A DNA stretch of 38,549 nt from Candidatus Aerophobota bacterium (GTDB lineage Bacteria > Aerophobota > Aerophobia > Aerophobales > JAGGXI01). Location: positions 1 through 38,549 of the forward strand of contig JAYEHT010000251.1 of assembly GCA_034659655.1 (NCBI GenBank), read 5' to 3'. The translations under genes were made by a program, and so were the position numbers. Shown piece by piece: positions 1 through 17,174 of this stretch (within the stretch, counting starts at the first letter, position 1; each line of letters begins with the position of its first letter). Below the pieces are notes generated by a model. The model searched no databases. It saw only the letters and a list, made by a program, of their open reading frames with translations, and was not told the DNA's origin.

Positions 1-2845
1 AGAGAAGAATGAGCTCATAGCTATCGACTCTCCCTATAGTTTAAAGAGAGTGGAGGATTTTATCTCAAGTATAGATAATCCCCAAAAACAGATGAGAGAA
101 GAGGATTTCCAGATAAAGTATGCTCAACTGGAGAAGGTAAAATCATCTATTGAAGAAGAGCTCTCCTCTTATGGAAAGTTAAAAGTAGATAGAGAAAGGT
201 CCCTTCTTCTTGTAGGAGATTTCTCTTATAATCTGGAGAAAATAGAGAAGATTATTAGCCGGCTGGACTCTTTTAAACCCGAAAGGAGAATTTATTCCAT
301 CAGATTTGCCCCCCTCTCTCAAGTAGAAAGAGAGATAAAGGTGCTTCTCTCGGATAAGGGAAAGGTGAAGGTAGATGAGAAGACAGATACTCTTCTCGTT
401 TCAGATGTAGAAAAGAGCTTACTGAAGGTGGATGAGCTGATTAGCAAGCTGGATGTTTTAAGCTCCCAGCTAATTGGCAAGGTAAATTTTAAGGAGGAGG
501 ATTTGAGAGATGCCCTGGATGCAATATCTCTTAAGACAGGTTTAAATATTATTATAGGTCCTCGGGTAGAAGGGAAAGTAACGGCGAGTTTCCCAAGACC
601 AACCCCTGTATTAAAGGCTCTTCAAATAATTCTTGAGGGAAGTGGCTGCGAGTACAGAAGAGAAGATGATGTTATAAAGGTGGCAAAGGCAGGAGTCCCT
701 CTTCCTATTCTCACAAGGAGTTTCCAGATAAAGTATGCCCTGGGTACTGAACTTGTCTCCTCCATTAAGCCGCTTCTTTCTGATAAGGGAACTCTTAAGG
801 TCAACGAGCAGGCAAATACTTTAATAGTTACCGATGCCCAAAAGAATTTAACCGGCATAAAAGATGCTATCTTAAAGCTGGATGAGCCTGTAAGACAGAT
901 GCAGACAAGGAACTTCTCCTTGAGGTTTATCCAGGCTAAAAAAGCTGGCTCTATTTTAAAGAGCCATCTAAGCAAAGCAGGAGAAATTGAAGTCGACTCT
1001 TCAGCCAATTCTCTTCTTGTAAGAGACGTCGCTTATAAGATGAAGGAGATACCATCTTTTCTCTCTTCTTTAGATGTTTTTAAGGAGGCTTTAAAAGTTT
1101 TCCCCCTTAAATTTGCTCTGGCAAGCGAAGTCTCAGAGCTTATTTCTGCTTATCTTAGTCCTGAAGGCAAGCTGAATGTAAACAAAGAGAAGAATGAGCT
1201 CATAGCTATCGACTCTCCCTATAGTTTAAAGAGAGTGGAGGATTTTATCTCAAGTATAGATAATCCCCAAAAACAGATGAGAGAAGAGGATTTCCAGATA
1301 AAGTATGCTCAAATGGAGAAGGTAAAATCATCTATTGAAGAAGAGCTCTCCTCTTATGGAAAGTTAAAAGTAGATAGAGAAAGGTCCCTTCTTCTTGTAG
1401 GAGATTTCTCTTATAATCTGGAAAAGATCAAGAGGATTATTAACCGGTTAGACTCTTTTAAATCCGAAAGGAGAATTTATTCCATCAGATTTGCCCCCCT
1501 CTCTCAGGTAGAAAGAGAGATAAAGGAGCTTCTCTCGGATAAGGGTGAGGTGAAGGTGGATGAGAAGACAGATACTCTTCTCGTTTCAGATGTAGAAAAG
1601 AACTTACTGAAAGTGGATAAGCTGATTAGCAAGCTGGATGTTTTAAGCTCCCAGCTAATTAGCAAGGTAAATTTTAAGGAGGAAGATTTGAGAGATGCTC
1701 TCCATACAATATCTCTTAAGACAGGTTTAAATATTATTGTAGGTCCTCGGGTAGAAGGGAAAGTAACGGCGAGTTTCCCCAGACCAACCCCTGTATTAAA
1801 GGCTCTTCAAATAATTCTTAAGGGAAGTGGCTGCGAGTACAGAAGAGAAGATGATGTTATAAAGGTGGCAAAGGCAGGAGTCCCTCTTCCTATTCTCACA
1901 AGGAGTTTCCAGATAAAGTATGCCCTGGGTACTGAACTTGTCTCCTCCATTAAGCCGCTTCTTTCTGATAAGGGAACTCTTAAGGTCAACGAGCAGGCAA
2001 ATACTTTAATAGTTACCGATGCCCAAAAGAATTTAACCGGCATAAAAGATGCTATCTTAAAGCTGGATGAGCCTGTAAGACAGATGCAGACAAGGAACTT
2101 CTCCTTGAGGTTTATCCAGGCTAAAAAAGCTGGCTCTATTTTAAAGAGCCATCTAAGCAAAGCAGGAGAAATTGAAGTCGACTCTTCAGCCAATTCTCTT
2201 CTTGTAAGAGACGTCGCTTATAAGATGAAGGAGATACCATCTTTTCTCTCTTCTTTAGATGTTTTTAAGGAGGCTTTAAAAGTTTTCCCCCTTAAATTTG
2301 CTCTGGCAAGCGAAGTCTCAGAGCTTATTTCTGCTTATCTTAGTCCTGAAGGCAAGCTGAATGTAAACAAAGAGAAGAATGAGCTCATAGCTATCGACTC
2401 TCCCTATAGTTTAAAGAGAGTGGAGGATTTTATCTCAAGTATAGATAATCCCCAAAAACAGATGAGAGAAGAGGATTTCCAGATAAAGTATGCTCAACTG
2501 GAGAAGGTAAAATCATCTATTGAAGAAGAGCTCTCCTCTTATGGAAAGTTAAAAGTAGATAGAGAAAGGTCCCTTCTTCTTGTAGGAGATTTCTCTTATA
2601 ATCTGGAAAAGATAAAGAGGATTATCAATCGGCTGGACTCTTTTAAATCCGAAAGGAGAATTTATTCCATCAGATTTGCCCCCCTCTCTCAAGTAGAAAG
2701 AGAGATAAAGGTGCTTCTCTCGGATAAGGGTGAGGTGAAGGTAGATGAGAAGACAGATACTCTTCTCGTTTCAGATGTAGAAAAGAGCTTACTGAAGGTG
2801 GATAAGCTGATTAGCAAGCTGGATGTTTTAAGCTCCCAGCTAATT
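1..2845 (+). repeat. Intragenic tandem repeat, period 1185 bp (395 aa = 1 STN + 5 N-domains), about 2.4 copies visible
   Basis: AGAGAAGAATGAGCTCATAG recurs at 1, 1186 and 2371. Similarity ends after AGCTCCCAGCTAATT at 2845. Confidence 0.97.
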
Positions 2846-3358
2846 ACAAAAAAATATTTTTTAAAATATTTAACCTCTAAGGAGGCTAAATTTTATCTTC
2901 AATCAGTAATCAGTGAATATGGAAAGATATCTTTACCTCAAGTTAAAGCCGCAGAAGAGGGAAAAAAGAATATTAAAGAAGATTATATTATCATTCCCCA
3001 GGATAAGAGTGAGAAAGAAATTAAATCTAAATCCCTTAAAGAGAAGGACTCTCCAAAAAATAGCCTTTATGAAGATAAAAACATAATTTATGTAACTGAT
3101 TTAAAAAAGAATATTTCCAGGATAGATGAGAAGATTTCAAGAATGAACAGCTCTTCTATAGGAGAGGCAGAAGATACCAAAACATTTTATATTGAAGAAG
3201 GTTCCCTGGATAATATAGCTCTTACTATAGCCAATATGATTGGAGTAAAACCTGAAGATATAAAAGGAATAGAGTTGACTGAGAAAGAAGGTCAATGGAT
3301 GAAGATGAATGTTCCTTCGCCAAGCATTAATTTAGGGACAATAGGACCCGGAAAATAA
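2..3358 (+). CDS. Giant secretin N-domain (NolW-like/STN) repeat protein, 5'-partial; no secretin beta-barrel in the visible part
   Basis: Frame is open from base 2. About 13 complete ~63-aa N-domains (pattern F-x-L/I-K-Y/F-A ... LS-x-x-G-x-L/V-x-V-D/N ... L-I/L-V-x-D ... LD) and 2 STN/N0-like domains (NFKEEDLRDAL..ISLKTGLNII.GPRVEGKVT). Ends SINLGTIGPGK with no barrel motifs. Confidence 0.85.
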   Translation, partial: EKNELIAIDSPYSLKRVEDFISSIDNPQKQMREEDFQIKYAQLEKVKSSIEEELSSYGKLKVDRERSLLLVGDFSYNLEKIEKIISRLDSFKPERRIYSIRFAPLSQVEREIKVLLSDKGKVKVDEKTDTLLVSDVEKSLLKVDELISKLDVLSSQLIGKVNFKEEDLRDALDAISLKTGLNIIIGPRVEGKVTASFPRPTPVLKALQIILEGSGCEYRREDDVIKVAKAGVPLPILTRSFQIKYALGTELVSSIKPLLSDKGTLKVNEQANTLIVTDAQKNLTGIKDAILKLDEPVRQMQTRNFSLRFIQAKKAGSILKSHLSKAGEIEVDSSANSLLVRDVAYKMKEIPSFLSSLDVFKEALKVFPLKFALASEVSELISAYLSPEGKLNVNKEKNELIAIDSPYSLKRVEDFISSIDNPQKQMREEDFQIKYAQMEKVKSSIEEELSSYGKLKVDRERSLLLVGDFSYNLEKIKRIINRLDSFKSERRIYSIRFAPLSQVEREIKELLSDKGEVKVDEKTDTLLVSDVEKNLLKVDKLISKLDVLSSQLISKVNFKEEDLRDALHTISLKTGLNIIVGPRVEGKVTASFPRPTPVLKALQIILKGSGCEYRREDDVIKVAKAGVPLPILTRSFQIKYALGTELVSSIKPLLSDKGTLKVNEQANTLIVTDAQKNLTGIKDAILKLDEPVRQMQTRNFSLRFIQAKKAGSILKSHLSKAGEIEVDSSANSLLVRDVAYKMKEIPSFLSSLDVFKEALKVFPLKFALASEVSELISAYLSPEGKLNVNKEKNELIAIDSPYSLKRVEDFISSIDNPQKQMREEDFQIKYAQLEKVKSSIEEELSSYGKLKVDRERSLLLVGDFSYNLEKIKRIINRLDSFKSERRIYSIRFAPLSQVEREIKVLLSDKGEVKVDEKTDTLLVSDVEKSLLKVDKLISKLDVLSSQLITKKYFLKYLTSKEAKFYLQSVISEYGKISLPQVKAAEEGKKNIKEDYIIIPQDKSEKEIKSKSLKEKDSPKNSLYEDKNIIYVTDLKKNISRIDEKISRMNSSSIGEAEDTKTFYIEEGSLDNIALTIANMIGVKPEDIKGIELTEKEGQWMKMNVPSPSINLGTIGPGK

Positions 3359-3392
3359 GGATTAGAGGATTAGAGGATTAAAGGATTAGAGG
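3359..3392 (+). repeat. 8-bp tandem repeat (GGATTAGA)x4
   Basis: ggattaga ggattaga ggattaaa ggattaga gg directly after the stop codon at 3356-3358. Confidence 0.85.
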
Positions 3393-3439
3393 GAAAAAAC
3401 AAAAAAAGAGAGAAAAAACAGTATTAGAGGAAGGGAAAG

Positions 3440-5740
3440 ATGAGAAAAATTAAGGCGTTGGTTACAATTTTCTTAGTGGTGATTTTATTTTCTTTCTTTG
3501 ATTTTAAAGTTTTTGCAGAACCCTCCATTATGGTGGATACCTCTACGGGGAGAATTACGGTAAGAGCCCCCAGGAAGAAGTTAAAAGAGATAGAGAAGAT
3601 GATTCCTCAATTCCCCTTAGAGACAAGACAGGTTCAAATTAAGGCAAGAATACTGGAACTTACAGAAAGTGGTGCTCGAAGTTTTGGCATATATATAAAG
3701 AGATTGACGGGTGTTAAGGCTCCTGAAGGAACCGAAGGTGAGGGAACTATTTTAGAGTACGGCCCCAAGACACTTACAGAAATAGCAAGTAAAGAGATAG
3801 GCGGTCTTGGTTTTACTTTTTATAGATTATTAACTGGAGAAGAAGAATTTCAAGCTCTTTTAAATATGCTTGTCTCTAAGGGAGAGGCAAAAGTTCTTTC
3901 CGAACCTCGGGTAACTACCATAAGTGGAGAGGTAGCTGGCATTTATGATGTTGAAGATGTCTCCTATCTTTCCAAGGTAACTACTACAACAGAAGCGGGG
4001 GTCACCAAAGAGACTAAAGAGTATACCTATGTTACCGTAGGGGTAGTTCTTCAAGTGCTTCCCAGGATTATAGGAGGGGAATATGTTCAAGTCTCTATTG
4101 TTCCCTTGTTGAGTGATTACAGCACTGAAAAATTTGGGGCAGACCGTCCTGTGTTTTCTCGTCGTGTCTCTCCCACTAATATTACCGTAAGGAGCGGGGA
4201 ACCTATCATTATTGGAGGATTGATAAAGGAGAAAAAAGAGGAGACTAAAAAGGGCCTTCCTATTCTCTCTGACCTTCCCATTATCGGTGATATTTTTACG
4301 AGCAGAAAAACAACAAAATCGAGAAAAGATCTTCTCATAACTCTCATCCCCCATATACTTAAGCCGAGAGAGATAAAGGGGAGATCTAAAAGGGTTTTCA
4401 CCTTTAAATATGCTCTTGCAGAAGAGGTAGCCAATCGAATAAAAGATATTATCTCTTCTCGAGGGATGATGGAGCTGAATCCAGAAGAGGCCCCTCCTAA
4501 TTCAATTTTAGTAAGGGATTCCGAAGATAAAGTAGAGGTAATCCAGAAGATGTTAAACAGGATAGGGACTTTTGAAGAGCAGAGAAGAGAAGAAGTCTTT
4601 CCTCTAAAGTTTTCTTCTCTCGAAGAGGCCAAAGAGGCCCTCTCTCCTTTACTTTCTTCAAAGGGGAATATCCGTATAGATAAAGAAAAGTATAGTTTAA
4701 TAATAGAAGATGGGGCATATCAATTGATGAGGATAAGGGAGGCTTTGTCTTCTCTCGAGAAACATAATCAAAAGCTACAAAGAAAAAGCTTTTCTTTAAA
4801 ATATGCTGAAGGAAGGGATATTATTCCTCTTTTAAGAGAATTTCTCTCTCCGCGGGGAAATATTTATATAAAAGAGGACAGGTTAGTGGTGGTAGATAAT
4901 AACTGGGTGATTCAGAAGATAGCTGAGGAAATACGGAAATTAGATGATTTTGACTCTCAAAAAAAGAGCAAGGTCTATCTCTTAAAATATGTGAGAGCTG
5001 AGAGACTCTATTCTTCAGAAGAGTTTAAGAGGACACTTTCTTCTATTCTTTATGATAAAGCTACTGTAAAGGTGGATGCTAAGAGAAATGCTCTGGTGGT
5101 TACTGCTCTAAAAAAGGGTCTAGGTAAGGTAGAAAAAGAGGTAGAAAACTTTGATATATATCGACCTGAGGAGATGAGTTATCAGGCAAAATACTGTTTT
5201 GCCGCTAGTTTGTCTAAAAAGATAATTCCTCTTTTGTCTGATAAAGGAGAGATTAAAGTTAATGAGGAGAAAAATTCTATTTTTGTGAAAGATTGTCCCT
5301 ATTATTTGAGTTTAATTAAAGAGAATTTATCCTCTTTTGATAGTTTTAAAAGAGAGAAGAGAGAAGAGACTATTCGTTTAAAATACGCTCCCCTTCCTCA
5401 AATTATCCAGATAATAAGAGAGCTTAAGTCTCCCTCAGCGAAAATTTTAAGTAAAGATAAAGAGAAAAATGAATTTGTGTTTCAGGAAGCCTTGTACCCC
5501 TTAAAGATAATTAAACAAAAAGTTCTTGCTCTGGATAAGTTTGATAAGTGGAAGGGAAAAAGAGCCTACAAGTTAAAGTATATAGAAGCCTCAGATATTG
5601 TTCCTATTATTCGCCTTTTTTTATCAGATAAGGGAAATATTATAATTCATAATCATAATAAAATAGCAGTAATTGATACTCCCTATTATCAAGCTAAAAT
5701 AAAGAATTCTATTGAAGTTTTGGATGCTCCACTGCCATAA
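3440..5740 (+). CDS. Secretin (PilQ/GspD superfamily) with the secretin core near the N-terminus and 7 N-domains at the C-terminus
   Basis: Sec signal peptide MRKIK-hydrophobic-VFA. Secretin motifs QVQIKARILE, VLSEPRVTTISGEVA, VGVVLQVLPRI, SGEPIIIGGL, GLPILSDLPIIGDIF and DLLITLIPHI lie within about aa 65-306, followed by 7 LKY-type N-domains. Confidence 0.88.
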   Translation: MRKIKALVTIFLVVILFSFFDFKVFAEPSIMVDTSTGRITVRAPRKKLKEIEKMIPQFPLETRQVQIKARILELTESGARSFGIYIKRLTGVKAPEGTEGEGTILEYGPKTLTEIASKEIGGLGFTFYRLLTGEEEFQALLNMLVSKGEAKVLSEPRVTTISGEVAGIYDVEDVSYLSKVTTTTEAGVTKETKEYTYVTVGVVLQVLPRIIGGEYVQVSIVPLLSDYSTEKFGADRPVFSRRVSPTNITVRSGEPIIIGGLIKEKKEETKKGLPILSDLPIIGDIFTSRKTTKSRKDLLITLIPHILKPREIKGRSKRVFTFKYALAEEVANRIKDIISSRGMMELNPEEAPPNSILVRDSEDKVEVIQKMLNRIGTFEEQRREEVFPLKFSSLEEAKEALSPLLSSKGNIRIDKEKYSLIIEDGAYQLMRIREALSSLEKHNQKLQRKSFSLKYAEGRDIIPLLREFLSPRGNIYIKEDRLVVVDNNWVIQKIAEEIRKLDDFDSQKKSKVYLLKYVRAERLYSSEEFKRTLSSILYDKATVKVDAKRNALVVTALKKGLGKVEKEVENFDIYRPEEMSYQAKYCFAASLSKKIIPLLSDKGEIKVNEEKNSIFVKDCPYYLSLIKENLSSFDSFKREKREETIRLKYAPLPQIIQIIRELKSPSAKILSKDKEKNEFVFQEALYPLKIIKQKVLALDKFDKWKGKRAYKLKYIEASDIVPIIRLFLSDKGNIIIHNHNKIAVIDTPYYQAKIKNSIEVLDAPLP

Positions 5741-14743: not shown

Positions 14744-15934
14744 GTGAGAAAAGAAGAGATTCTTAAAGAAGCAGAAGAATATATTTTTTCTACCGGCTTG
14801 AACGATAGCGGGAGTAAGCTATGTAAGGCTAATATGAAGTGGGGATTGGCTAAGATAAATTATTGGCAGGAGATTTTAGGCGTCTCTCCCAAAGCTACTT
14901 TTATTTCTACTCCTGATATGACGATTACTCGAAATACTTCCCGTTGGAAGAGTGGTTTTGGTTATGGAGGAAAAATTAGCTGGGGAGAGGGAAAAGAAGA
15001 ATTTATTGTTTTGGATACTAAACCTAATGCTTGCGGAATGCTGGTGGGAGGGTTAGAGAATTTTCCTGAGGAAGAGGAGATTCTGGAAAGAACGAGGCTT
15101 TTTCAGAAAGAGAGACACTTTATTCAAAAAGCAGAAGTAAAATGGGATTTTAGCGAGGGTAATCATTTTATTGATATTTTCTCTGTTAAACCAGGAAGCG
15201 AAGTTAAATTACCTCCTTATATTTTTATTATTCATGGGTCTGCCGGAGAATTGAAACAGAAGAGTCCTTTAGGATGGGGTCTTTATTATGATAAGTCCCC
15301 TTCTCTTGAGAAGGAAGCAGAGATTGTGGATACTCCCTTTGGTCCTTTACATATTTTAGAGGGAGAAAAAGCAAGGAAATATTTTGAGCTTTATCAATTT
15401 GCTGACCAATTTTCTAAAAAAAGGAGAGAATTAACTGCAAAAAAGCTCTTTGGGGATTATCAGCTAATTTTTAATGAAACCCATCAGGGTCTTTTAAATT
15501 ATAATGAGATTTTGTTAGGGTCTCATTATATAGAATCGGAAGATAAGTTGTATCCCCTGACTTTACGTGGTGATTTACCGGCCTATTTATTAAAAGGAAA
15601 GAAGAATTTAAGCTCGAAAAGCATTGAAAATTTAGGGTTTGAAAAAAGGGCTAAAAGATTAAAAGTGTATCATAGATTAAGAAAAGCTAATCTTATTCCT
15701 CATGGAGGAGGTTATACCTTTCCTCATCTTTTAAATGTAGATGAGATTTATGAAATAAAAGATAGAAGATATTTTAAAGTGGATGTAGCTAATGATCGGG
15801 GGAAGCAGATTTTTTTCAGTGCTCGTGATGTTCCCTATGCATATCGAGGAAGAGAAGTAGTTTTAAAGGCACTGGAACTGGGATTAGGGGAAATAGCGGC
15901 AAAGCTCATCCCCTTATATGTATTGAAGGTATAA
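14744..15934 (+). CDS. Divergent RtcB-like (3'-phosphate/5'-OH nucleic acid ligase fold) protein
   Basis: RtcB-like motifs in canonical order: TPD, GFGYGG, NACG, GNHFID, IHGS, HQ, PHGGG (equivalent to HGAGR), PYAYR (equivalent to PxAYK), terminal LKV. Confidence 0.75.
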   Translation: MRKEEILKEAEEYIFSTGLNDSGSKLCKANMKWGLAKINYWQEILGVSPKATFISTPDMTITRNTSRWKSGFGYGGKISWGEGKEEFIVLDTKPNACGMLVGGLENFPEEEEILERTRLFQKERHFIQKAEVKWDFSEGNHFIDIFSVKPGSEVKLPPYIFIIHGSAGELKQKSPLGWGLYYDKSPSLEKEAEIVDTPFGPLHILEGEKARKYFELYQFADQFSKKRRELTAKKLFGDYQLIFNETHQGLLNYNEILLGSHYIESEDKLYPLTLRGDLPAYLLKGKKNLSSKSIENLGFEKRAKRLKVYHRLRKANLIPHGGGYTFPHLLNVDEIYEIKDRRYFKVDVANDRGKQIFFSARDVPYAYRGREVVLKALELGLGEIAAKLIPLYVLKV

Positions 15935-15935
15935 A

Positions 15936-17174
15936 ATGAGTTTTATTGCTGATTTTCATGTTCACTCCAGGTATAGTCGGGCTACTTCGAAAGATATGGA
16001 TATCCCGCATATAGATAGGATAGCGAGATTAAAAGGGATTAATCTTGTAGGAACGGGGGATTTTACTCATCCACTCTGGTTAAATGATTTAAAAAATGCT
16101 CTTACTCCTCTTGGAAATGGGCTTTACAGATGGGGAGCTACTTTTTTTATGTTGACAGCTGAGGTTAACAATGTATTCTATAAAAAGGGAAGAAATAGAA
16201 AGATACACAATATAATCTTTGCTCCTGATTTTAAGGTAGTAGAAAAGGTAAATAAAGAGATAGGAAAATTTGGAGACCTATTTTCTGATGGCCGCCCTAC
16301 TTTAAATATGGAAGCAAAACATCTTATAGAGGTAGTGCTGGGAGTTAGTGAAAAGGCTTTTGTTGTTCCTGCTCATATCTGGACGCCCTGGTTTTCTCTG
16401 TTTGGAGCTAACTCTGGTTTTGATTCTATTGAGGAGTGCTTCGGGGATTATACTAAGTATATTTATGCTCTGGAAACAGGGTTAAGTAGTGACCCGGCAA
16501 TGAATTGGCGAGTTTCCAATTTAGATAAATTTACTCTTATCTCTAATTCTGATGCTCACTCTCCCTCTAAATTGGGAAGGGAGGCTAATGTTTTTTCTCA
16601 GAAGCTAGATTATGAAGAAATTAGAAACGTCTTCAAAGAAAAAGACAAAGATAAATTTATTTATACTATTGAATTCTTTCCCCAGGAGGGGAAATATCAT
16701 TATGATGGTCATCGTCGATGTGGCCTCTCTTTTTCTCCTGAAGAAAGCAGAAAATGTAGAAATCGTTGTCCCAAATGTGGGCAAGCTTTAACTGTGGGCG
16801 TGATGCACAGAGTAGAGGATTTAGGAGATAAGGAAAAAGGATTTACTCCTCCCGGGACTATTCCCTTTAAACGTATTATTCCCCTGAAGGAGATAATTGC
16901 CAAAGTTTTAAATCAAGGGGTAGATACTAAAGGGGTGAAGGAGAAGTATAGAGAAATTGTTCAGCAGTTGGGAGGAGAGTTTTATGTACTTTTAAATGCT
17001 CCTTACGAGGAGTTAACCCGCTTTATCTCTCCTAAAATTGCTGAGGGAGTAATGCGCGTAAGAGAGGGGAGAGTAAAGATAAAATGCGGTTATGATGGAG
17101 TTTACGGAGAGATTAATATATTTAGCGAAGAAGAAGAAAAGAAAGAAAAAGGAGAACAGCTTAATTTATTTTAA
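15936..17174 (+). CDS. Endonuclease Q family (PHP domain + Zn ribbon) DNA repair protein
   Basis: DFHVHSRYSRATS, GTGDFTHP, PAHIWTPWFS, ETGLSSD, SNSDAHS, GKYHYDGHRRC, CPKCG, GYDGVYG. Confidence 0.92.
   Translation: MSFIADFHVHSRYSRATSKDMDIPHIDRIARLKGINLVGTGDFTHPLWLNDLKNALTPLGNGLYRWGATFFMLTAEVNNVFYKKGRNRKIHNIIFAPDFKVVEKVNKEIGKFGDLFSDGRPTLNMEAKHLIEVVLGVSEKAFVVPAHIWTPWFSLFGANSGFDSIEECFGDYTKYIYALETGLSSDPAMNWRVSNLDKFTLISNSDAHSPSKLGREANVFSQKLDYEEIRNVFKEKDKDKFIYTIEFFPQEGKYHYDGHRRCGLSFSPEESRKCRNRCPKCGQALTVGVMHRVEDLGDKEKGFTPPGTIPFKRIIPLKEIIAKVLNQGVDTKGVKEKYREIVQQLGGEFYVLLNAPYEELTRFISPKIAEGVMRVREGRVKIKCGYDGVYGEINIFSEEEEKKEKGEQLNLF

Follow-up and report, generated by a model that had tools for sequence, protein, structure and literature searches.

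The window analysed here comprises the first 38.5 kb (38,549 nucleotides) of contig C251 (JAYEHT010000251.1) from a Candidatus Aerophobota bacterium, a metagenome-assembled genome (MAG) of 315 contigs that is 85.7% complete. At its 5′ end lie two consecutive open reading frames (ORFs) on the plus strand: ORF1, an array of secretin N-domains that lacks a barrel, and ORF2, in which a secretin barrel is followed by seven N-domains. To our knowledge, the solved secretins of the type II (T2SS) and the type III (T3SS) secretion system, type IV pili, Tad pili and filamentous phages (pIV) all have the periplasmic rings first and the barrel last on a single chain. The Aerophobota gene pair departs from this plan in both respects and is a real, conserved and unusual feature, namely a type IV pilus secretin that is divided between two genes and permuted in its domains. 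The identity and anatomy of ORF2 can be assigned with high confidence, and its features are as follows (pLDDT, predicted local distance difference test; rmsd, root-mean-square deviation).

3440–5740, plus strand: ORF2, a barrel-first secretin of 766 aa (open frame, Pfam, AlphaFold2 (AF2) model, structural alignment)
3440–3517, plus strand: putative signal peptide, aa 1–26 (read from the sequence)
3518–3613, plus strand: half N-domain (beta-beta-alpha), aa 27–58, an N3-like domain of which the C-terminal half is kept (hhalign, Pfam, model)
3617–4378, plus strand: Secretin (double beta-barrel) domain, aa 60–313 (structural alignment; Pfam match at nucleotides 3869–4363)
4382–4579, plus strand: R1, first trailing N-domain, aa 315–380 (Pfam E 5.3e-6; hhalign E 4e-19)
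4580–4771, plus strand: R2, aa 381–444 (Pfam E 7e-7, 29.8 bits; EscC N-domain, Z 9.5, rmsd 1.9)
4772–4957, plus strand: R3, aa 445–506 (Pfam E 5.1e-5; GspD residues 102–165, Z 9.0, rmsd 1.6)
4958–5164, plus strand: R4, aa 507–575 (Pfam E 7e-4; HofQ extramembranous domain, Z 7.7)
5165–5356, plus strand: R5, aa 576–639 (Pfam E 0.023; XcpQ N-domain, Z 11.0, rmsd 1.3 Å over 64 residues; hhalign E 9e-25)
5357–5548, plus strand: R6, aa 640–703 (no Pfam match; beta-alpha-beta-beta-alpha, pLDDT about 90; hhalign E 7e-18)
5549–5737, plus strand: R7, aa 704–766 (Pfam E 2.9e-7, 31 bits; MxiD N1, Z 7.6)

The Pfam Secretin profile (PF00263) matches ORF2 at aa 144–308 with an E-value of 7.5e-37 (127 bits, cut-off 27.5) and, when run against the genome DNA, scores 131 bits at the same gene. 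The AF2 model, a monomer calculated from an alignment of 32 homologous sequences (mean pLDDT 78.3), extends the barrel domain to aa 60–313, and this domain superimposes on the solved InvG, GspD and PilQ structures with Z-scores of 10–11.6 (VIA-align). The secretin domains of Pseudomonas aeruginosa and Vibrio cholerae PilQ match the model at Z 9.2–10.2, and the Foldseek matches comprise solved GspD, PilQ, InvG, RcpA and pIV, the best being GspD (E 2.4e-11). Model confidence in the barrel ranges from about 60 to 83, falling below 50 in the loops 91–132 and 274–288. The putative signal peptide, of which aa 2–19 are modelled as a hydrophobic helix, contains no cysteine and hence is no lipoprotein signal, a pattern that is kept in the homologues. 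ORF2 is an exported protein, and its secretin domain has, judging from the model, the same fold as the solved outer-membrane channels of 12–15 subunits. The 32 aligned sequences show a mean column identity of 52%, with invariant glycines and prolines.

Between the signal peptide and the barrel lies only half an N-domain. This segment (aa 27–58) aligns with columns 27–61 of the 66 columns of the N-domain profile (hhalign probability 90%, E 1.5e-6) and with positions 33–63 of Pfam Secretin_N (E 0.019), and the model renders aa 29–57 as a beta-beta-alpha element of low confidence. In the structural alignment of the GspD/EpsD chain (residues 285–593) with residues 30–313 of the model, the half-domain falls at the end of N3. 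Pfam searches of ORF2 detected neither an N0/STN domain nor an AMIN or S-domain; the canonical series of N0 and N1–N3 ahead of the barrel on the same chain is thus absent from ORF2.

The barrel is followed by seven back-to-back units of 62–69 aa that run up to the stop codon without linkers between them. Over the whole of ORF2, the Pfam Secretin_N profile (PF03958) scores 130.2 bits (cut-off 28.2) in four stretches, the best of which is aa 708–764. When the repeats are scanned singly, five of the seven reach E < 0.001, but the 28.2-bit cut-off is exceeded by R2 and R7 alone. All seven are recognised in profile-profile comparison with the N-domains of ORF1-type proteins (probability 98.5–99.6%, E 3e-15 to 9e-25); the N-domains used here were cut only from barrel-less proteins of this type, and the segments were chosen with a hidden Markov model (HMM) derived from the ORF2 repeats but are independently called Secretin_N by Pfam. 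The order of secondary structure elements assigned by DSSP on the AF2 model is beta-alpha-beta-beta-alpha in every repeat, with a pLDDT of 80–93 by 10-residue block (77 in the last, partial block). For R1 and R6, no solved N-domain appears among the 50 structural matches listed. Taken together, the trailing domains show homology to the ORF1-type arrays, with which they align over 352 aa in several registers (29% identity, E 2e-36).

An earlier note, drawn up from the DNA letters before any of these searches, had placed the secretin core at about aa 65–306 and seven N-domains of about 63 aa behind it up to the stop, and had suggested HMMER searches with PF00263 and PF03958 as a check. These searches do place Secretin ahead of Secretin_N, and both the position of the core and the number of repeats agree with the profile comparisons and the model. 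The description of the protein as barrel-first stands with two amendments: the N-domains indeed come after the barrel, but the barrel does not begin at the very N-terminus, since the half N-domain precedes it, and N0 together with further N-domains is found not in ORF2 but in ORF1.

The features upstream of ORF2 are the following.

2–3358, plus strand: ORF1, a barrel-less secretin N-protein with repeated N0 and Secretin_N domains, its 5′ end cut by the contig start (Pfam, own HMM)
1–2850, plus strand: 1185-nt tandem unit in ORF1, with two full copies (1–1185 and 1186–2370) and about 480 nt of a third
3161–3355, plus strand: conserved 65-aa C-terminal tail of ORF1, proposed docking module for ORF2 (alignments)
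3359–3439, plus strand: ORF1–ORF2 intergenic spacer, with 8-nt AGGATTAG repeats at 3358–3392

In Pfam searches ORF1 yields 305 bits for Secretin_N in nine stretches, 63 bits for GspD N0 and 42 bits for STN, with no Secretin (barrel) domain, and our own HMM finds at least 13 full N-domains in it. The 1185-nt unit encodes an N0 and five N-domains, and its full copies are 97.7% identical, so that N0 recurs within one protein; the break of the contig can be attributed to this repeat. The first 330 aa of ORF1, comprising signal peptide, N0 and N-domains, are found at the end of another contig of the same genome (C260), directly after PilO-like and PilP-like ORFs. The two genes are separate, ORF1 ending at 3358 and ORF2 starting at 3440 with its own signal peptide; in relatives the spacer measures 13–61 nt. 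Within positions 3358–3429 of the window, AGGATTAG recurs 4.4 times and an A-rich unit of 19 nt 2.4 times, and the spacer repeats may be Shine-Dalgarno-like repeats ahead of ORF2.

The genomic neighbourhood assigns the pair to a pilus operon. Loci L010 (ORF2 78% identical) and L011 (45%), from two other assemblies, carry in sequence pilM, pilN, pilO, an ORF of 143–148 aa, an ORF1-like gene and an ORF2-like gene, with PilM, PilN and PilO matches above the cut-off in both, and joining C260 to C251 produces the same order in the genome of the window. PilP is the only or the top family for the small ORF between pilO and the ORF1-like gene in all three cases. ORF2 is accordingly the last gene of a pilMNOP(Q) cluster, its neighbours in L010 and L011 being pil rather than gsp genes. 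It is the sole Secretin match in the window genome, which also encodes PilB-like and PilT-like ATPases as well as Omp85/BamA, the presence of the latter making an outer membrane likely. Because the barrel-less N0/N-domain array of ORF1 stands directly upstream of ORF2 in the slot of pilQ, PilQ is split here, with its barrel half domain-permuted. It is probable that ORF1 and ORF2 jointly replace pilQ in an operon for type IVa pili (pilM-pilN-pilO-pilP-like-ORF1-ORF2) in this Aerophobota bacterium, which is likely to have an outer membrane. The public title of the record that contains L011 (genome G019) is ‘uncultured Clostridia bacterium’, yet this genome belongs by its placement to the order of the window genome and has the operon as well; its ORF1 region is in part masked N.

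A word-index search retrieved 178 homologues of ORF2 at E ≤ 0.001, and those with a named source come mostly from Candidatus Aerophobetes. Their lengths cluster near 765, 620–630, 495–520 and 441–460 aa, the short forms ending after R2 or R3. Across the 31 genomes of the phylum (7 families, 15 genera), ORF2 has a match in 28; the three in which none was found at E ≤ 1e-10 are 69–84% complete. Barrel and trailing repeats form one continuous match in 23 of the 31 genomes, without internal stops in 19, and an N-array ORF lies directly upstream on the same strand in 16. In nine of the 12 best rows the open frame exceeds the match by 1–32 aa only, which indicates that ORF2 starts on its own.

These data bear on the explanation that a misassembled or frameshifted pilQ, or a pseudogene, mimics the inverted order. 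The assembly leaves some room for it, given that the contig begins inside the 1185-nt repeat of ORF1, the genome is in 315 contigs and some relatives contain internal stops. However, gene pairs with their own start, signal peptide and stop recur in independent assemblies at identities down to 45%, the 32-sequence alignment is conserved, and AF2 is confident over the repeats. Since the continuous match recurs in so many genomes of the phylum, the barrel-first order is not an assembly artefact; the explanation by artefact or decay, which the conservation contradicts, is extremely improbable.

The number of trailing domains varies among the relatives (2, 3, 5, 6 or 7). A tree of 119 barrel domains, a quick tree in which many rows come from short contigs with a C-terminus that is perhaps cut, contains coherent clades with two repeats (11 rows), three (a 57-row clade), five (5 rows) and seven. 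The starred branches of this tree force at least 8–9 changes of repeat number, a guess that is biased upwards because rows from short contigs may be truncated at the C-terminus.

The rarity of this architecture was gauged with a HMMER search that produced 32,472 matches among 1.84 billion representative proteins, the best 150 of which were classified with our own barrel and N-domain HMMs. A barrel is present in 139 of these best 150 matches, the other 11 being N-arrays that lack it. N-domains follow the barrel in only seven of the 139 (six members of the ORF2 family and one BlaR1-peptidase/multi-secretin fusion, P0248) and in none of the other 132; put differently, the barrel-first order is missing from 132 of the 133 barrel-bearing representatives outside the ORF2 family. 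Other secretins with long C-terminal parts carry tetratricopeptide repeats (TPRs) or unassigned sequence there. The earlier note had proposed a new class of secretin, in which the C-terminal array might form a second periplasmic tube or an outer sheath around the ORF1 conduit. The recurrence in the phylum, the rarity among the other barrel-bearing representatives and the adjacency of the two genes support a distinct, conserved architecture with ORF1 as a real partner gene. Its further suggestion of a thick or unusual envelope finds no evidence in the genome, where Omp85/BamA points to an outer membrane. Moreover, the envelope does not force the inversion, because secretins of canonical order are present as well in four further genomes of the phylum.

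These second secretins (L025–L028, in G008, G001, G007 and G006, respectively) are N0-N-N-Secretin proteins in all four cases, with a TPR tail in three, so that the inversion is specific to the pil-linked secretin. The second system is absent from the window genome as assembled. An ORF of 263–267 aa lies upstream of the second secretin and proved to be a barrel-less N0 plus Secretin_N protein in both loci scanned (L025 and L026); in L025 and L027, an ORF near the second secretin has a match to DUF3426 below the cut-off.

Several further observations concern other unusual secretins. In the library protein P0248 (2,113 aa), a single frame holds a BlaR1-type M56 peptidase together with five STN domains and four matched stretches of Secretin; it may represent a fusion or result from merged gene calls. 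Giant secretins of canonical order, with lengths of 2,766–5,054 aa, account for 29 of the best 150 matches (within P0132–P0262); the two that were scanned have N0, 20 or 25 matched Secretin_N stretches and the barrel at the C-terminal end, and such arrays can hardly be straight stacked rings. Short secretins of 292–389 aa, with a barrel and little else, occur in ESM Atlas clusters of Omnitrophota, Rifleibacteriota, Melainabacteria and others. Secretins parted from their N-domains may therefore exist beyond Aerophobota, although these clusters gave no architecture information and are not used as evidence here.

A number of points weigh against the assignment of the pair as a split, permuted pilus secretin or against parts of it. 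ORF2 scores 174.6 bits with the NCBIfam profile for PilQ (TIGR02515), below its cut-off of 284.35, and 251.4 bits with that for GspD (TIGR02517), which is likewise below the cut-off (351.35) but exceeds the PilQ score. The PilP matches of the small ORF remain below the Pfam cut-off (E 4e-4 to 4e-3). Stop codons interrupt the matches of four relatives (G001:C97, G025, G011 and G009), and, the MAG being 85.7% complete, a second secretin could have escaped assembly in the window genome. The repeat R4 also resembles the KH domains of PNPase (Z 7.1). The count of barrel-first proteins refers to the best 150 of the 32,472 matches, obtained with an HMM of the ORF2 family, so that distant barrel-first forms might occur elsewhere. 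Finally, ring formation, the geometry of the arrays and the docking site are features that we infer. The low scores have a practical corollary: ORF2-type proteins are filed as ‘hypothetical’ or ‘NolW-like domain-containing’, and because they fall below the PilQ and GspD cut-offs, the pilus and competence capacity of Aerophobota could be under-called.

Several known systems resemble the pair in part. The closest in function, PilQ of Thermus thermophilus, a 350 Å complex of 13 protomers with six stacked rings (N0–N5), is likewise a type IV pilus secretin of about 760 aa with a long array of beta-alpha-beta-beta-alpha ring domains, which is thought to span a wide periplasm, and it serves in DNA uptake as well (PMC5745081). 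Its rings, however, all come before the barrel, on one chain with N0 (PMC5745081), whereas ORF2 has a half N-domain before the barrel and seven N-domains after it, and N0 in Aerophobota sits on the second protein, ORF1. Proteobacterial PilQ of type IVa pili has the architecture AMIN(0–3)-N0-N3-secretin (PMC7545093); ORF2 shares with it the gene position after pilMNOP and the secretin fold, but lacks AMIN and N0, has the reverse domain order and falls below the TIGR02515 cut-off. The only split secretin found in print is the T2SS-derived mitochondrial GspD/GspDL of some protists with the separate N-domain proteins GspDN1–3 (PMC8134430). There, too, barrel and N-domains are on separate polypeptides, the barrel protein being barrel-only, and two of the GspDN proteins are half N-domains, in parallel to the start of ORF2; yet that system is eukaryotic and derived from the T2SS, and its barrel protein has no trailing N-array (PMC8134430). 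A further candidate, PMC6668835, was set aside as a report of a split secretin, the word ‘split’ in its text referring to tree splits. Secretins with other C-terminal additions, such as GspD and InvG with their S-domains and the TPR-tailed secretins of the phylum, resemble ORF2 in showing that periplasmic-side extensions are tolerated at the C-terminal end of the barrel; in contrast to ORF2, these extensions are helical S-domains or TPRs, not N-domains, and the proteins keep N0-N-N before the barrel. A search of titles and abstracts found no description of Aerophobota secretins or of permuted secretins, supplementary architecture tables being outside its scope.

As to the function of the pair, the secretin domain of solved secretins both begins and ends at the barrel's periplasmic rim, and the trailing domains can therefore point back into the periplasm. 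By homology, ORF2 would multimerise into a gated outer-membrane pilus pore, and its trailing domains would form rings or struts below or around the base of the barrel, with the conserved R1–R2 nearest to it. R1 and its short, nearly invariant linker to the barrel include the invariant columns E311, G314, R315, K317, Y324, G342, N347, P348, E350, A351 and N354, and the linker together with R1–R2 contains many invariant and near-invariant columns in the 32-sequence alignment; this part is therefore probably a fixed ring at the barrel base. In canonical PilQ, the N0 ring meets PilP and the inner-membrane platform, and by analogy ORF1 would supply the N0 ring for the PilP contact.

The connection between the two proteins would be made by the C-terminal tail of ORF1. 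Alignments of four and of ten sequences show the tail to be rich in invariant columns, and its motif is present in the ORF upstream of ORF2 at 12 loci (10 distinct sequences, including that of the window). It has no significant match to the N-domain, N0 (E 0.12) or barrel (E 0.16) profiles, and Pfam gives only a chance-level match on the last 172 aa of ORF1. The AF2 prediction for the last 192 aa (10-row alignment) has a mean pLDDT of 34.8 and is unusable, and a complex prediction of ORF2 aa 27–320 with the tail, run without controls, scored 0.16 (mark 0.32), a value that speaks neither for nor against a contact. Since the tail stays unchanged across forms that differ in the number of trailing repeats, it may dock on a conserved part of ORF2, namely the half N-domain, the barrel base or R1–R2. 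That the tail might be the missing first half of the ORF2 half N-domain is not claimed here and serves as a lead only: residues 6–27 of the tail align with N-domain columns 3–24 at a probability of 7% (E 0.005, hhalign), a match to the first half so weak that an N3 split between the chains and completed in trans is not supported.

The constancy of the tail, whatever the repeat number, also favours, by way of argument, arrays that run side by side over arrays that run end to end. In a tentative reading, which we consider possible but rather unlikely, the pair would constitute a two-chain, double-array secretin: ORF2 would extend up to seven ring domains from its C-terminus back into the periplasm, and ORF1 would be docked by its 65-aa tail at the barrel base, giving two coaxial or interleaved assemblies. 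Tandem duplication and loss lengthen and shorten the arrays, as the nearly identical 1185-nt units of ORF1 and the clades of different repeat number show. The likely origin is a duplication-permutation of an ancestral pilQ combined with gene fission, which fits the homology of the ORF2 array to the ORF1-type arrays.

A rival geometry would be one very long, single-walled conduit, resembling that of Thermus PilQ yet built from two chains, in which the trailing rings of ORF2 lie under the barrel and ORF1 continues the tube end to end to PilP. The N-domains of solved secretins do form stacked rings, six of them over 350 Å in Thermus PilQ (PMC5745081), and the ORF2 repeats are contiguous, without linkers, at a period of 62–69 aa. 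The distal ORF2 repeat, to which ORF1 would have to attach, nevertheless differs among the 2-, 3-, 5- and 7-repeat forms while the ORF1 tail is conserved. Furthermore, the window genome would have to stack at least 7 + 13 N-domains plus the N0s, which, at about 3 nm per secretin ring, exceeds the usual widths of the periplasm. An end-to-end tube thus seems unlikely.

Alternatively, the trailing domains could be flexible periplasmic modules that bind DNA taken up in natural transformation, peptidoglycan or assembly factors and stand in for AMIN or for the S-domain and its pilotin. The best solved match of R4 is the domain of the DNA-uptake secretin HofQ, its fold is KH-like, Neisseria PilQ reportedly binds DNA (to judge by the title of PMC2884949), AMIN and S-domain were not found in ORF2 by Pfam, and the arrays of the giant secretins cannot all be straight stacked rings. 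Against such modules, the nearest matches of every repeat are bona fide N-domains of secretins, and the invariant columns in R1–R2 and the linker are those expected of a fixed structural ring, so that we regard this role as quite improbable.

If the double-array arrangement holds, its conduit geometry would have no precedent among solved structures, and ORF2 would represent a natural circular permutation of a secretin. If the pore works, a barrel can assemble without a covalent N0–N3 stack ahead of it, and ring domains can hang on its C-terminus. The pair bears on the folding and gating of secretins, on the connection to the inner-membrane platform and on the tuning of conduit length, and can serve as a naturally occurring test case for secretins designed in permuted or split form.

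Downstream of ORF2, the window encodes the housekeeping genes purE, eno, ftsH and ruvC. Two adjoining ORFs of 396 and 412 aa, for which no Pfam match was obtained at E ≤ 0.001, follow an HD-domain gene at positions 14744–17174 of the window.

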